Assembly: GCA_963722805.1 (NCBI GenBank)
Contig: CAVROQ010000010.1
Coordinates: 38,915 to 102,914, forward strand
From: an uncultured Gammaproteobacteria bacterium
GTDB taxonomy: Bacteria; Pseudomonadota; Gammaproteobacteria; Pseudomonadales; JAHEGP01
Direction: 5' to 3'
DNA length: 64,000 bases
Numbering within the stretch: the first letter of the stretch is position 1; the number at the start of each line of letters is the position of its first letter. A program made the translations under genes and the position numbers. The notes beneath the pieces were generated by a model. It saw only the letters and a list, made by a program, of their open reading frames with translations, did not search any database and was not told the origin of the DNA. Positions 2,504-14,146 of the stretch are shown here, in pieces.

Positions 2504-4435
2504 TTGAAACACTTAAAACCAATACTGCTGTGCATCGCACTGGCCGTTGCCAGTCTATCAGCACTGGCGCAGGGCGAGCGCAACATTACCATGAACATGC
2601 AGGATGCCGAAATTCGCGCCTTAATCCAGTGGATGGCAGATAAAAGCGGCAAGAACTTTGTAGTGCACCGAGACGTGAAAGGCTCCGCGACAGTTGTCTC
2701 CGCAGAACCGGTCAGCCTTGACGAGGCCTGGCAAATGTTTTTGCAGGTACTCGAACTCAATGGTTATGCTGCAGTAAGCTCCGGCCAGTCAGTGAAGGTT
2801 CTGCCGGCCCCCAAGGCTTCACAATCTGCCGGTAACGCCGACGCAAGCCTCGCCGGAGATATTAAAGTCAGCATCATCCGCCTGCAACACGTGCCGGCAC
2901 AGGAACTTAGCGTACAGCTGAAGCCGCTAATGAGTGAAGCCGGTGTCATCACCGCGTATTCCCAGACCAATGCTCTGATAGTTTCCGACCGGGGAGACAA
3001 TATCGAGCGCATACGCCGCCTTAGCCGGCAAATTGACCAGAGCGGTGATTCATCATTCGACCTGGTCAAATTGAAACATGCGGATGCTTTTGAGCTCCTC
3101 AAGTCGGTCAGCGGTTTGATGAGTGAAGAACTCAAACAATCGGGTTTGGCTGTGTCGATGTCGGTTGACCAGCGCAGCAATGCGATTCTGCTGGCTGGCA
3201 ATAGTTATCAGCGTACTAAGGTAAAAAAGCTGGTGCAGCAGTTGGATAAACCGATGGAAGCTACTGCTGGAACCCAGGTGATATATCTTCACTATGTGGA
3301 TGCGGAGGAATTAGTACCCGTACTGCGAGGCACCCTTGATCACATCAACGAAGACTCCATGGAGAGTTCTACCCCTGCCAGTGTCGAGGCAAGTAAAGCC
3401 GCCAACGCCCTGGTGATCAATGCACCGCCAGCCATCCAGGCCCGCATCAAGCGAGTCATAAAACAGTTAGACATCCGCCGCGCCCAGGTGTTGGTAGAAG
3501 CACTTATTGTCGATGTTATGGAAGACGATGGCCGCGAATTGGGGATTAGCTGGATCACCTCAGACCTGGCCGAGGAAAACCGTACGGGTGGTTTTGCAGC
3601 CAACAACACCACCGGCGCTCTGGGCATAGGCAGCACCATCGCCGATAGCGACGGTGAAATTATTGATGTTATTCCCGGCGCCGGACTGAGTTTTGGCTAT
3701 ATAAAGGATGGAGACCTGCGAGCCGTGTTTCGAGCGCTCTCTACCAAGACTCGTTCCAACGTCATATCCACCCCTAGCGTGGTGGCTCTGGACAACGAGG
3801 AGGCTTCATTGCTGGTCGGTCAGAATGTGCCCTTTGTCACCGGCCAATCCACCGGTGCCGCTTCGCAAACCGACAACCCTTTTACCACCGTCCAGCGACA
3901 GGATATCGGTACTACCCTGAAAATTACGCCTCGCATCAATCGTGGCGACTCGGTAACGCTGAAGATTGAGCAAACCACTGAGCGAATAAACAACGAAGCT
4001 TCCTCGTCAGCTGTCGACCTGGTAACTAACAAACGCCAGATTCTCACGAACGCCCTGATCCGGGATGGAGAAATTCTGGTTCTCGGGGGCCTGATCAGCG
4101 ACGAAGAGTCTGATTTGGTCCAGAAAACACCGCTACTTGGCGACCTGCCGATACTCGGCCACCTGTTTCGCTCCAAGGGCAAGCTGAAACAAAAAACCAA
4201 TCTGATGGTGTTTATTCACCCGGTGATTTTGAAAGATGAAATGCAAGTTGCCGATGTCACACAGCGCCGCTATGACTTCATGCGCCAAGTACAGAAGTCC
4301 TACCGTAATCGAGAGCGTGTTGACTGGAACCAGGAACCACCGCTATTGCCGGACTATGACGAATTTAAGCCCGGTGGTTCAGTTACGCCAGAGGGTATGA
4401 TCGCACCACAGGGCATTGTAAGCGGGAAGCGCTAG
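2504..4435 (+). CDS. gspD: Type II secretion outer-membrane secretin GspD
   Basis: The track ORF is 2489..4435. I prefer the TTG at 2504, which is preceded by AAGGAG and gives the signal peptide MKHLKPILLCIALAVASLSALAQG. N0-N3 domains and a C-terminal secretin core are recognisable (ISTPSVVALDNEEASLLVGQNVPFVTG, LVLGGLISD, KTPLLGDLPILGHLFRS). Confidence 0.93.
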   Translation: MKHLKPILLCIALAVASLSALAQGERNITMNMQDAEIRALIQWMADKSGKNFVVHRDVKGSATVVSAEPVSLDEAWQMFLQVLELNGYAAVSSGQSVKVLPAPKASQSAGNADASLAGDIKVSIIRLQHVPAQELSVQLKPLMSEAGVITAYSQTNALIVSDRGDNIERIRRLSRQIDQSGDSSFDLVKLKHADAFELLKSVSGLMSEELKQSGLAVSMSVDQRSNAILLAGNSYQRTKVKKLVQQLDKPMEATAGTQVIYLHYVDAEELVPVLRGTLDHINEDSMESSTPASVEASKAANALVINAPPAIQARIKRVIKQLDIRRAQVLVEALIVDVMEDDGRELGISWITSDLAEENRTGGFAANNTTGALGIGSTIADSDGEIIDVIPGAGLSFGYIKDGDLRAVFRALSTKTRSNVISTPSVVALDNEEASLLVGQNVPFVTGQSTGAASQTDNPFTTVQRQDIGTTLKITPRINRGDSVTLKIEQTTERINNEASSSAVDLVTNKRQILTNALIRDGEILVLGGLISDEESDLVQKTPLLGDLPILGHLFRSKGKLKQKTNLMVFIHPVILKDEMQVADVTQRRYDFMRQVQKSYRNRERVDWNQEPPLLPDYDEFKPGGSVTPEGMIAPQGIVSGKR

Positions 4436-11175: not shown

Positions 11176-11949
11176 ATGATCAACATAGAACCGATATCAG
11201 CCTTCAGTGATAATTATATATGGTTACTCCACGATGCCAATACTGCCTGGGTAGTGGATCCCGGTGATGCTGCGGTTGTCGTCGATGCCATAGCGCGCAT
11301 CGGCAAGCCCCTTGGTGGAATTCTCTTGACCCATCATCATTTCGACCATACCGGCGGGGTTGAGGAGCTGGTGCAACGCTACCAGCCCAAAGTTTTTGGG
11401 CCCACCAACCCTGCCATAAAAGGCGTGAACACAAGCCTCAAACAGGGCGACAGCGTCGACGTGATGGGCGTCCAGTTCGACATACTGGAAGTACCAGGAC
11501 ATACCCTCGATCATATTGCATACTTCGCCCCTGACTATCAGCCGGGGCCCCTGCTGTTTTGCGGTGACACCTTGTTCGCAGGAGGATGTGGACGTATTTT
11601 CGAGGGAACTGCGCCGATGATGTATGCGTCGCTGCAACAATTGGCTTCACTTCCCACCCTCACCCAGGTGTTCTGCGCCCATGAATATACCCTGGCAAAT
11701 CTGGCTTTTGCAGCGGCGGTTGAGCCGGCGGCAGCGGCCATCCGGGATCGCATCAGCCGCGACCAGGGGCGGCGTAAACAAGGTTTGCCCACTGTGCCGT
11801 CGCAACTGGGCGAAGAGTTACAAACCAATCCTTTTCTGCGCTGCAGCCAGTCGAGTGTAACGGCAGCAGCGACACGCCGGGCTGGCAGGCCGCTACCGGA
11901 TGACGAGGCCGTGTTCGCAGAAATCAGAGCCTGGAAAAACGATTTCTGA
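11176..11949 (+). CDS. gloB: Hydroxyacylglutathione hydrolase (glyoxalase II)
   Basis: 257 aa with SDNYIWLL, the metallo-beta-lactamase motif THHHFDHTGG, PGHTLDHIAY and CAHEYTLANLAFA. It is divergent from the methyltransferase operon. Confidence 0.95.
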   Translation: MINIEPISAFSDNYIWLLHDANTAWVVDPGDAAVVVDAIARIGKPLGGILLTHHHFDHTGGVEELVQRYQPKVFGPTNPAIKGVNTSLKQGDSVDVMGVQFDILEVPGHTLDHIAYFAPDYQPGPLLFCGDTLFAGGCGRIFEGTAPMMYASLQQLASLPTLTQVFCAHEYTLANLAFAAAVEPAAAAIRDRISRDQGRRKQGLPTVPSQLGEELQTNPFLRCSQSSVTAAATRRAGRPLPDDEAVFAEIRAWKNDF

Positions 11950-11952
11950 CAC

Positions 11953-12116
11953 CAATGGCACTTACTTAACGCCACTACAGTGATTTGCGGAGCCCCGGTG
12001 TGTTCGATCCGCGGGCGTCTGCGGCAGGGATGCCGCAGTCGAGCCTCCAGGGAGGGATTCACGGCGTGCCGCGGATCGAACACACTGGGGTACATCCGCT
12101 TAAGTAAGTGCCATTC
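11953..12116. mobile_element. MITE-like nonautonomous element (164 bp) with 16-bp perfect terminal inverted repeats and an 11-bp flanking direct repeat
   Basis: The TIR AATGGCACTTACTTAA (11954-11969) is matched by its reverse complement at 12100-12115. It is flanked by the direct repeat ATTTCTGACAC at 11942-11952 and 12117-12127. Internally, 22-bp arms are nested (11993-12014 / 12069-12090, one G-U position). The central hairpin is CTGCGGCA-GGGA-TGCCGCAG (12019-12038). The element has no coding capacity. Confidence 0.7.
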
Positions 12117-12474
12117 ATTTCTGACACGAAAATTCTGTCATTAGCCGGCAATATTGGTCCACCGGGCAATGCTATTAAAATCGGGACCGTCGCTCTCCCT
12201 GGTCGAGACAAGCACTTACGCCAGCTGGCTCGCCCTAAGATAGCCGCACTATCTGGCAAATGCGCGGCGGGCAAAGCATAATGCGGGCTGTAATCATAAA
12301 CCCAAGGGTGAAACAGTAACCCAGTGCTCATCCTGAAGGCGCCGCCTTGACCGGCAACTTTGACATTTCTAGACTTTACGCTGCCATGCCAGGATAGATA
12401 TTGCGGGAGAAGGAACGTTGCAAGCAGGCAATAAAAGCAAGAAAAAAACATCTCAGATTATCTGTCAAAACGCT

Positions 12475-12687
12475 GTGAAGCCAACATTCCTGGCTGTTGT
12501 CGTTGCTATGGTAAGCGCCTGTGGCAGCAGTCCCATGCAGCCCGGGGCATCGCAAAGCCAGCTTCCCGGCGAGTCGATGAAAACGGCTTCTACGCTACCG
12601 CCAGAGCCCACCCCGCTTGCCCAGACACCAATTGACATCGCGGCGTTCCGGTCTATGACCAGCGGAGCCCCTGCAGTGCCAACCTGA
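12475..12687 (+). CDS. mltD: Lipoprotein signal peptide plus linker segment of MltD, out of frame with the catalytic ORF
   Basis: The GTG at 12475 gives MKPTFLAVVVAMVSAC-GSS, a classic lipobox, followed by a Pro/Ser/Thr-rich linker. The ORF stops at 12685-12687. The MltD body is open in the next frame from 12659. Confidence 0.55.
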   Translation: MKPTFLAVVVAMVSACGSSPMQPGASQSQLPGESMKTASTLPPEPTPLAQTPIDIAAFRSMTSGAPAVPT

Positions 12688-12694
12688 AGATTCG

Positions 12695-14146
12695 TTGGCA
12701 TTGAGCTGGAACCAAGCCCAGCACAATGATGTCTGGGCGCGGCTTAGAGCGGGATTCCAGTTGGATCACGACAGTAACCAACCCCGGGTCAAGGCAGAGC
12801 TGAAGTGGTTTGCCACTCATCAGTCCTATATCGACCGGGTTGTCGAACGCGCCAACCCCTACCTTTACTACGTTGTCGAGCAACTCGAAAGCAACAATAT
12901 ACCCACGGAATTGGCATTGCTGCCCATTGTAGAGAGTTCCTACAACCCGTTCGCCTATTCCCACGGTCAAGCGGCAGGGATTTGGCAGTTCATTCCTAAC
13001 ACCGGCAAGATGTACGGCCTGAAGCAAAATTGGTGGTATGACGGGCGTCGCGATATTCGCGCCTCAACCCGCGCCGCAATCCAGTATTTGAGCGAATTGA
13101 ACAAGCGCTATAAAGGTGACTGGGAACTTACCATGGCTGCCTATAATGCGGGCCTGGGGAATGTCGATCGCGCCATCCGACGCAATCGCAAACAGGGCAA
13201 GCCGACTGACTTCTGGTCGCTGCAGCTACCCAAGGAAACGCGCGCCTATGTGCCGCGCTTACTGGCGGTGGCCAAAATCGTCGCCAATCCTGCCGAATAC
13301 AATGTCCACTTAAACCCGGTACCCAACCAACCCTTTTTTCATCCCGTCGCTATCGGCGGCCAACTGGATCTTAGCGACGCCGCGCGCCTGGCCCAGGTTA
13401 GCCTGGAAGATATGTATCGGCTAAATCCCGGCTTTAATCGCTCGGCTACTGACCCGAAAGGTCCCTTCGAGCTACTGCTACCCGCTGAGCGGGCCGATGC
13501 CTTTTCACTCAAGTTAGAGCAGCTCGCAAAAACAGGCGGCACGGGCTGGGGGCAGTACAAGGTCAAATCAGGGGACAACCTCGGCGCGATAGCAATGCGT
13601 CACAGCACCACCGTCAACGCGATCAAACAGGCAAACCAGCTCAGCAGCAATACCATTCGCCCCGGCCAGCAGCTGATGATTCCAAAATCAAGCCATGCGG
13701 CAGGCTATTCGGCACCGGGCTCGGCTGCTGCGCGTGTCGCGGCCAACCAGGGCGGACCCGGCGGCAAGTCGGATCGCAAGCGCATTGAATACCGGGTACG
13801 CGCCGGGGACTCCATGTGGAAAATTGCGCAACAACACGGCGTGTCGATAACAGATCTGGCGCGCTGGAATAACCTCTCTGCCAAAGCTACGATTCATCCT
13901 GGCACGGAACTAGCCTTATGGGCCGACAACATCCCTGAGCCAGGTTCGCAGAGCAGTGCAAAGCTGCCGGAGCAAGTGCGCAAAGTGGGTTACACGGTTC
14001 GCAGCGGCGACTCATTGGCGCGCATCGCCTCAAGGTTTAATGTCAATCTCAACGATATTCTTAAATGGAACCCGCTAGACCGGCCAGAGTACCTTCGGCC
14101 CGGGCAAAGCCTGACGCTTTATATCGATGTAACCAAGGTAAACTGA
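12695..14146 (+). CDS. mltD: Membrane-bound lytic murein transglycosylase D (SLT domain plus three LysM repeats), body of the gene
   Basis: DVWARLRAGFQL...LLPIVESSYNPFAYSHGQAAGIWQFIPNTGKMYGL...AAYNAG form the GH23 catalytic Glu region. Three LysM repeats are present (YKVKSGDNLGAIA..., YRVRAGDSMWKIA..., YTVRSGDSLARIA...). This frame has no signal peptide. Confidence 0.92.
   Translation: MALSWNQAQHNDVWARLRAGFQLDHDSNQPRVKAELKWFATHQSYIDRVVERANPYLYYVVEQLESNNIPTELALLPIVESSYNPFAYSHGQAAGIWQFIPNTGKMYGLKQNWWYDGRRDIRASTRAAIQYLSELNKRYKGDWELTMAAYNAGLGNVDRAIRRNRKQGKPTDFWSLQLPKETRAYVPRLLAVAKIVANPAEYNVHLNPVPNQPFFHPVAIGGQLDLSDAARLAQVSLEDMYRLNPGFNRSATDPKGPFELLLPAERADAFSLKLEQLAKTGGTGWGQYKVKSGDNLGAIAMRHSTTVNAIKQANQLSSNTIRPGQQLMIPKSSHAAGYSAPGSAAARVAANQGGPGGKSDRKRIEYRVRAGDSMWKIAQQHGVSITDLARWNNLSAKATIHPGTELALWADNIPEPGSQSSAKLPEQVRKVGYTVRSGDSLARIASRFNVNLNDILKWNPLDRPEYLRPGQSLTLYIDVTKVN

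Follow-up and report, generated by a model that had tools for sequence, protein, structure and literature searches.

How does a 164-bp palindromic sequence come to lie exactly at the end of a gene without damaging it? The question is raised by a stretch of 64,000 nucleotides from an uncultured Gammaproteobacteria bacterium (GenBank assembly GCA_963722805.1, contig CAVROQ010000010.1, positions 38,915 to 102,914), which we will call the window. Here, such a sequence sits at the 3' end of gloB, upstream of mltD. Our results suggest a miniature inverted-repeat transposable element (MITE) that derives from an ISPen1-like insertion sequence (IS; IS4 subgroup of the IS4 family), is non-autonomous and carries a YPAL-like module as a passenger. 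We give this reading a probability of roughly 85%. It stands on the ends of the element, the duplication of its target, the empty sites in relatives, its family membership and the target consensus, all of which can be observed directly. The insertion has the following parts:

11176 to 11949, forward strand: gloB (hydroxyacylglutathione hydrolase, 257 amino acids, from the list of open reading frames), with the stop codon TGA at 11947-11949.
11942 to 11952, no strand: left target-site duplication ATTTCTGACAC, an exact repeat that holds the gloB stop codon.
11953 to 12116, no strand: the 164-bp MITE, non-autonomous, IS4 family, with ISPen1-type ends, recognised by its terminal repeats, its duplication and the empty sites.
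11953 to 11969, forward strand: left terminal inverted repeat (TIR) CAATGGCACTTACTTAA, 16 nt of it perfect, with a terminal C where the family consensus has G.
12100 to 12116, reverse strand: right TIR TTAAGTAAGTGCCATTC, which matches the left end over 16 nt.
12117 to 12127, no strand: right target-site duplication ATTTCTGACAC, an exact repeat.

An 11-mer repeated at a fixed offset is expected by chance with a probability of only about 2e-7. The direct repeat that a first, sequence-only reading of this DNA had proposed is indeed exact. That reading had also claimed that the left repeat contains the gloB stop codon and that the protein is intact, and this holds as well: the open reading frame ends at 11949, and in a profile search against TIGR03413 (320.9 bits) residues 4-257 of GloB cover profile positions 1-248 of 248. 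Because the TGA lies within the left copy of ATTTCTGACAC, the insertion leaves the GloB protein unaltered, and the C-terminal codons of gloB are the same in relatives as in the window (alignment). At the protein level the effect of the element on GloB is nil.

The ends of the element are equally well defined. The 16-mer AATGGCACTTACTTAA occurs at 11954-11969 on the forward strand and at 12100-12115 on the reverse strand, and an exact 16-mer is expected only about 3e-5 times per 64 kb by chance. There is no further match in the window, even when three mismatches are allowed, which confirms that the element is present there as a single copy. Between the 16-nt repeats and the direct repeats there is one additional C on either side (11953 and 12116), and these two bases are the termini of the element. 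Since the family consensus has G...C at these positions, the TIR is 17 nt long with a terminal mismatch. The perfect 16-bp TIRs and the 164-bp element at 11953-12116 that had been read from the letters are therefore correct, except that the terminal C on each side was overlooked. Only spurious short open reading frames overlap 11953-12116 in the list of open reading frames, and the element is non-coding.

The strongest argument that the sequence was inserted comes from relatives. Three syntenic gloB-mltD loci (L123, L124, L125) carry one copy of the target, ATTTCTGACA, and no element. Their alignment reads ...GGAAAAACGATTTCTGACA-ACGAG... once, with the whole 164 bp missing, including the TIRs. 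A single-copy target without the element is a classical empty site. Gene order is shared, with rnt, rnhA and a methyltransferase gene on one strand and gloB and mltD on the other, and the gloB-mltD spacer measures 468 bp in the window versus 314-316 bp in the three relatives. The GloB proteins of these empty-site relatives, the closest other GloB proteins, are 93% and 87% identical to that of the window. The filled site is found elsewhere too: a 521-kb contig in ENA (L121) encodes an identical GloB and carries an identical element, and a Logan contig (L122) with identical GloB ends 28 bp inside the element, which is thus present in an independent assembly.

Short-read contigs with an identical GloB break within or near the MITE. 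The Logan contig just mentioned stops at its position 3067, and a second one of 1456 bp (ERR12037370) stops 2 bp after the stop codon. Such breaks fit graph branching caused by repeats, or co-occurring relatives with an empty site.

One could also argue that the sequence is not a mobile insertion at all, but a native, conserved structured terminator or 3' untranslated element of gloB. A very stable hairpin right after the stop codon would make sense under this explanation: folded as RNA, the 186-nt region reaches -103 kcal/mol (z = -8.7), and none of 200 shuffled sequences was equally stable. So would the single copy in the window. Nevertheless, we consider this explanation hardly credible, for the following reasons. 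First, the sequence is missing at three of three orthologous loci, and the target is single-copy there. Second, its TIRs are identical to those of an IS family and border an exact 11-bp duplication. Third, it does not look like a Rho-independent terminator, a candidate that we rejected: at its base the stem consists of the A/T-rich TIR, which is followed by CAUUUCUGA and not by a U-tract. Because the U-tract is missing, the structure is not a canonical terminator, and a scan for terminators and promoters called no site at 11942-12127. Hence, of the two fates that the sequence-only reading had weighed, a mobile element or a conserved terminator, the mobile element prevails, and its suggestion that the 3' structure acts as a terminator finds no support. 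If transcription reads through from gloB, the MITE would form a very stable 3' hairpin that might affect the gloB/mltD transcript, and by analogy with YPAL it could act as a stabiliser.

Which IS do these ends belong to? A scan for the 16-mer, with one genome per species, returned at least 120 loci (L001-L120), which lie mostly in Gamma- and Betaproteobacteria and in part in other phyla. Pairing the ends among the listed loci yields 47 elements, seven of them 1427-1534 bp long and 37 no longer than 300 bp. One full copy (L002) has 1508 bp between its repeats and encodes a protein of 477 amino acids. Against NCBIfam NF033592 (IS4 family transposase) this protein reaches 225 bits, and it also matches Pfam DDE_Tnp_1; the stop codon of this transposase falls inside the right repeat. 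On plasmids of Pseudomonas veronii and Aeromonas caviae, homologues of the protein carry the annotation IS4 family transposase; the left end of the P. veronii copy is the same, and IS4 of E. coli/Shigella is a distant match. For ISPen1, an IS4-family element of P. entomophila, both the left and the right inverted repeat are given as TGGCACTTACTTAA in a genome announcement (PMC7378034). Members of the IS4 subgroup are 1400-1650 bp long, have ends of the form -AATR--------WTW---- and produce direct repeats of 10-13 bp (PMC2266710). In the left end CAATGGCACTTACTTAA, positions 2-5 read AATG and positions 14-16 read TTA, in agreement with this end consensus, and the 1.43-1.53-kb copies and 11-bp repeats of the family lie within the published ranges. 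An IS with matching ends, which the sequence-only reading had left to be found, thus exists: it has ISPen1-type ends of the IS4 family and encodes a transposase.

The element itself is not unique. Three further loci (L191, L196, L244) have its left end, CAATGG...TTAAC, together with arms homologous to its own, but within different flanks and each with its own duplication. With the window element they form a dispersed subfamily. A blastn search with the 164-bp sequence matched nothing in E. coli genomes or PLSDB plasmids. The MITE family appears to be undescribed. Other ISPen1-type MITEs (L049, L074, L083, L086, L100, L105; e.g., L105 7380-7544) have a different internal motif, GTCATCCCCGCGAAAGCGGGGA..., beside the repeat. 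The same ends hence carry several unrelated cargos.

The ISPen1-type elements also share a target. Eleven-bp direct repeats in the register of the window are found in 20 of the 47 paired elements (15 perfect, five with one mismatch), and 35 of the 47 have G...C as their terminal bases. The logo of 141 flanks is the palindrome GGGYCWGRCCC, A-rich upstream and T-rich downstream. The window target, ATTTCTGACAC preceded by AAAAACG, fits this consensus at positions 4-9 and 11. Its core TCTGAC contains TGA, and target preference thus accounts in part for the hit on a stop codon. Judging from the consensus, a preference for ..TCWGAC.. probably explains the placement at the stop codon better than coincidence does. 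Many of the insertion sites among L001-L120 read AAAA-GGGGTCWGACCCC-TTTT, a palindrome with A/T-rich shoulders. Such sites could reflect either a pure preference of the transposase or the targeting of another short repeat or terminator-like sequence.

Several observations weigh against our reading. At its left terminus the element has C and not the G of the family, and the window target fits just seven of the 11 consensus positions. Homology between short and full-length elements is confined to about 17-19 bp per end, too little to trace the element to a specific parent by internal deletion. The window, moreover, holds one copy of the element and no IS4-family transposase (tblastn with the family transposase).

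On our reading the element would have been mobilised in trans. We infer that a transposase of the ISPen1 group, encoded elsewhere, would recognise the 17-bp ends and insert the element by DDE cut and paste into the 11-bp target ATTTCTGACAC overlapping the end of gloB. Cuts staggered by 11 bp and their repair would then duplicate the target, so that the left copy retains the last codons and the TGA. The insertion would have occurred later than the split from the relatives with 87-93% identical GloB.

What does the element carry? Between its ends lies a hairpin module with the following parts:

11993 to 12014, forward strand: left arm of the internal hairpin module, 22 nt, corresponding to helix 1 of the alignment that we call A4.
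12019 to 12038, forward strand: apex hairpin 1, CTGCGGCA-GGGA-TGCCGCAG, with an 8-bp stem and a GGGA loop.
12041 to 12066, forward strand: conserved core string GAGCCTCCAGGGAGGGATTCACGGCG, common to YPAL/RU-2/Ysr224 and more than 120 metagenomic copies.
12046 to 12057, forward strand: apex hairpin 2, TCCA-GGGA-GGGA, in which G replaces the usual U after GGA.
12069 to 12090, forward strand: right arm of the internal hairpin module, which pairs with 11993-12014.

The two arms are 95% complementary, the sole exception being one G.T position. The interior had been described as a three-level nested palindrome made of TIRs, 22-bp arms and an 8-bp stem with a GGGA loop. All three levels are there; the second hairpin at 12046-12057 had been overlooked.

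The module is related to a repeat of Yersinia. With cmscan the element matches Ysr224 (RF02770) on the minus strand at 12012-12110 with 27.4 bits (E = 2e-4). The gathering score is 70, so the match is sub-threshold across the full model and homology is limited to the core. The other Rfam matches of the element are spurious miRNA hairpins only, with no Csr/Rsm RNA family among them. Delihas gives a 168-nt RU-2/YPAL sequence from Y. pestis (PMC2759123) that contains GCGTCCGCGCCAAGGATGGCGCGGCTCGAGCCTACATGGATGTATTTACGGCGTC, where the window has GCGTCTGCGGCAGGGATGCCGCAGTCGAGCCTCCAGGGAGGGATTCACGGCGTG. Taken together with the Ysr224 match, this sequence indicates that Ysr224 is part of YPAL and that the window core is homologous to it. 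YPALs are reported to have no terminal repeats but internal inverted repeats, to be flanked by duplications of 3-26 bp, to insert beside dyad symmetries just downstream of genes, and to show both filled and empty sites (PMC2229807). The window element is not a YPAL in the strict sense, because it stays below the threshold of the family model and does not show internal repeats only with variable 3-26-bp duplications.

Among the TIR-bearing MITEs, the core is found in four from named Gammaproteobacteria. When the 120 TIR loci were searched by blast with the element, just two of them matched its interior (L008, L033), and a pattern search added two more (L067, L077). A degenerate 26-nt core pattern matched at least 120 loci with at least 129 copies in a metagenome collection, with up to three copies per contig among those listed. 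An ISPen1-type repeat lies within 140 nt of 11 of the 129 listed metagenomic copies, and the remaining 118 are without one. On some contigs the modules cluster: five (L139, L167, L189, L193, L200) carry inverted pairs 200-330 bp apart (e.g., L193 212-309 and 476-573), and one (L172) has three copies within 5 kb. In another (L221, about 3400-3560), a module has about 80 extra nt inside hairpin 1, a nested insertion in the apex.

The arms of the module are about 23-40 bp long, wholly different between copies and complementary within each copy, and they close a three-way junction with two hairpins. In alignment A4 (66 sequences), 90% of cells pair, compared to 59.5% after shuffling and 34-42% with partners slid. 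Double changes occur in 32 of 40 pairs (806 cells), with a covariation score of 0.73 versus 0.17. The C-G pair below the loop is invariant in both hairpins (66/66) and the A-U pair above it is often broken, so that the loop is effectively ANGGAN. Hairpin 1 lies outside the search pattern, and yet 96 of 120 unique copies have C[AC]NGGANG there. The distance between the two GGA motifs is 22-23 nt, and 23 nt in the window.

The arms are also asymmetric between strands. Mismatches of the G.T type outnumber those of the A.C type 136 to 42 (p = 9e-13), and in A4, corrected for composition, 79 to 32 (p = 1e-4). This excess implies that what is constrained is the GGA-bearing strand in single-stranded form. 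A single-stranded DNA intermediate together with an enzyme would account for the strand bias equally well. There is a second strand asymmetry in A4, where purine-purine A.G/G.A mismatches number 82 and C.T/T.C mismatches 25. The left arms (columns 1-23) are G-rich (42% G), the right arms (columns 77-99) C-rich (39% C).

Two copies on one contig (L127, 21-118 and 871-968) lie 850 bp apart. Their arms differ at about eight positions, every difference is compensated in the opposite arm, and there are no uncompensated intermediates. Such a pair points to very strong selection or to a copying process that regenerates perfect palindromes. One possible origin of the arms, as inverted duplications of the target, is rejected: the TIRs enclose them, and within the subfamily of the window element the arms are homologous.

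Modules adjoin the 3' ends of genes. Within 100 nt of a module, upstream genes share its strand in 32 cases versus 13, and downstream genes lie on the opposite strand in 47 versus 21. The orientation test against flanking genes was done twice with home-made open reading frame calls, which are crude. By the same calls, the module is sense in 13 and antisense in 12 co-directional contexts, i.e., there is no bias.

These observations bear on the question of what moves. It might be that the YPAL-like module is itself the mobile unit, spreading independently of TIRs (e.g., through a single-strand hairpin and an enzyme), and that the ISPen1-type ends are remnants of a MITE that it invaded. The 118 of 129 listed core copies without a nearby ISPen1-type TIR would be expected in this case, as would the internal inverted repeats and 3-26-bp duplications of YPALs (PMC2229807), the strand-specific wobble mismatches and the lack of orientation bias with respect to genes. 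The window locus, however, tells a different story. Its duplication abuts the TIR termini exactly and has the 11 bp typical of the IS4 subgroup, and the empty site lacks the entire 164 bp, TIRs included. Furthermore, an all-against-all blastp search of the flanking open reading frames at the 120 core-bearing loci found housekeeping families only and no recurrent transposase or recombinase. We therefore think that independent movement of the module is a very unlikely explanation, and that the unit that moved to the end of gloB was the whole IS4-type MITE.

A separate question is whether the module is maintained for what it does in RNA. The loop sequences bring to mind the ligands of CsrA/RsmA, which contain CAGGA(U/A/C)G repeats in CsrB, the consensus RUACARGGAUGU in selection experiments (SELEX), and GGA in an ANGGAN hexaloop; one dimer bridges two sites 10-63 nt apart (PMC6849547; PMC7652899). 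In the window, hairpin 1 (CAGGGATG, 12025-12032) fits CANGGANG, and hairpin 2 (CAGGGAGG, 12048-12055) does so despite a G for U. The commonest hairpin 2 of the family, CUACAGGGAUGU, agrees with 11 of the 12 SELEX positions. The window thus contains two GGA hairpin loops that fit CANGGANG at a distance within 10-63 nt, the sequence features of a dual CsrA/RsmA site. Tentatively, the twin ANGGAN hairpins could be the selected feature of the module, a predicted high-affinity dual site for a CsrA/RsmA dimer, a proposal that comes from motif comparison and that we consider rather unlikely.

The corresponding RNA-level role, in which the module is bound by a CsrA/RsmA dimer or acts as an exonuclease-blocking hairpin and so alters gloB/mltD mRNA stability or titrates CsrA, is doubtful to about the same degree. 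It would be in line with the fit of both loops, the near-SELEX hairpin 2 and the C-G pair invariant in 66 of 66 sequences, with a GGA spacing of 22-23 nt inside the bridging range, and with the excess of G.T over A.C mismatches (136 versus 42, or 79 versus 32 when corrected). The GGA strand is the sense strand of gloB and mltD in the window, the named genomes with the core (L008, L033, L067, L077) are all Gammaproteobacteria, and YPALs are reported to be co-transcribed with upstream genes and to affect transcript stability (PMC2229807). Against such a role stand the even numbers of sense and antisense modules (13 versus 12) and the fact that covariation of inverted repeats is no proof of a function in RNA. 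The stem of hairpin 1 measures 8 bp, while the stems of SELEX ligands mostly have no more than 4 bp (PMC7652899), and the window copy has a mutated hairpin 2. No csrA was seen in the window or the loci, which is uninformative either way, and in the literature that we searched we found no paper that ties CsrA to YPAL, to MITEs or to these repeats, or that makes the above proposal.

What does all this mean? As an insertion, the locus is a clean, datable case in which a palindromic target preference (..TCWGAC..) probably steered an IS4-type MITE onto a stop codon and left the gene undamaged, and a probable mobiliser (ISPen1-like) can now be named for the MITE family. The cargo is more interesting than the insertion: a very widespread module of about 100 nt is common to Yersinia YPAL (Ysr224) and environmental copies. 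If the CsrA proposal were true, mobile repeats would scatter CsrA-binding handles or decoys through gammaproteobacterial genomes. Nearby transcripts would then be wired into the Csr/Rsm regulon, or CsrA would be collectively titrated, and dispersed repeats would form an unrecognised layer of the Csr/Rsm network.

Downstream of the element, two further features of the locus deserve mention. About 180 nt upstream of mltD (12255-12440) are 100% identical to L123 and L124 and about 93% identical to L125. This is far above the conservation of neighbouring coding DNA (GloB of L123/L124 is just 93% identical). The conserved leader contains a promoter-like TTGACC-17-TAGACT at 12347-12375; it has no Rfam match, and folding of the three sequences showed no covariation. 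Further on, at 12659, the window has one base more (TATG-A-CCAGC) than L121, which is otherwise identical, and than L123 and L125. The additional base divides the 575-amino-acid mltD into two open reading frames (12418..12687 and 12695..14146); it may be a true frameshift or else an error of sequencing or assembly.

How, then, does the element compare to known systems? Its terminal repeat, (G)AATGGCACTTACTTAA(G), is identical to that of ISPen1 and fits the IS4 subgroup, but at 164 bp it has no transposase, and its interior is unrelated passenger DNA. With YPAL, which is about 165 bp long, it shares a homologous core of about 55 nt (GCGTC-hairpin-GTCGAGCCTNCANGGANGNATTNACGGCGT) surrounded by long complementary arms. 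Unlike YPAL, which has no TIRs and variable duplications, it has ISPen1-type TIRs and an 11-bp duplication. ERIC and Correia/NEMIS elements are likewise small TIR-bounded repeats that are co-transcribed and form long hairpins affecting mRNA processing or stability (PMC2229807). They differ in their TA targets and termini, share no sequence similarity with our element, and probably depend on different transposases. The hairpins of CsrB/RsmZ-type small RNAs and the SELEX ligands resemble the module in having GGA in an ANGGAN hexaloop, a closing C-G pair and two sites within bridging distance; the module, in contrast, is a dispersed repeat within a long hairpin and not a small RNA gene, and has two sites only, both of them predicted.

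A further parallel for the whole arrangement is provided by the MIC231 cassettes of the Bacillus cereus group. In these cassettes the ends of IS231, another IS4-family element, surround passenger DNA that is mobilised in trans, and the target is palindromic as well, of the GGG(N)5CCC type. The two systems belong to different subgroups and host phyla, and whereas MICs carry genes, the element at the end of gloB carries only a structured non-coding module.

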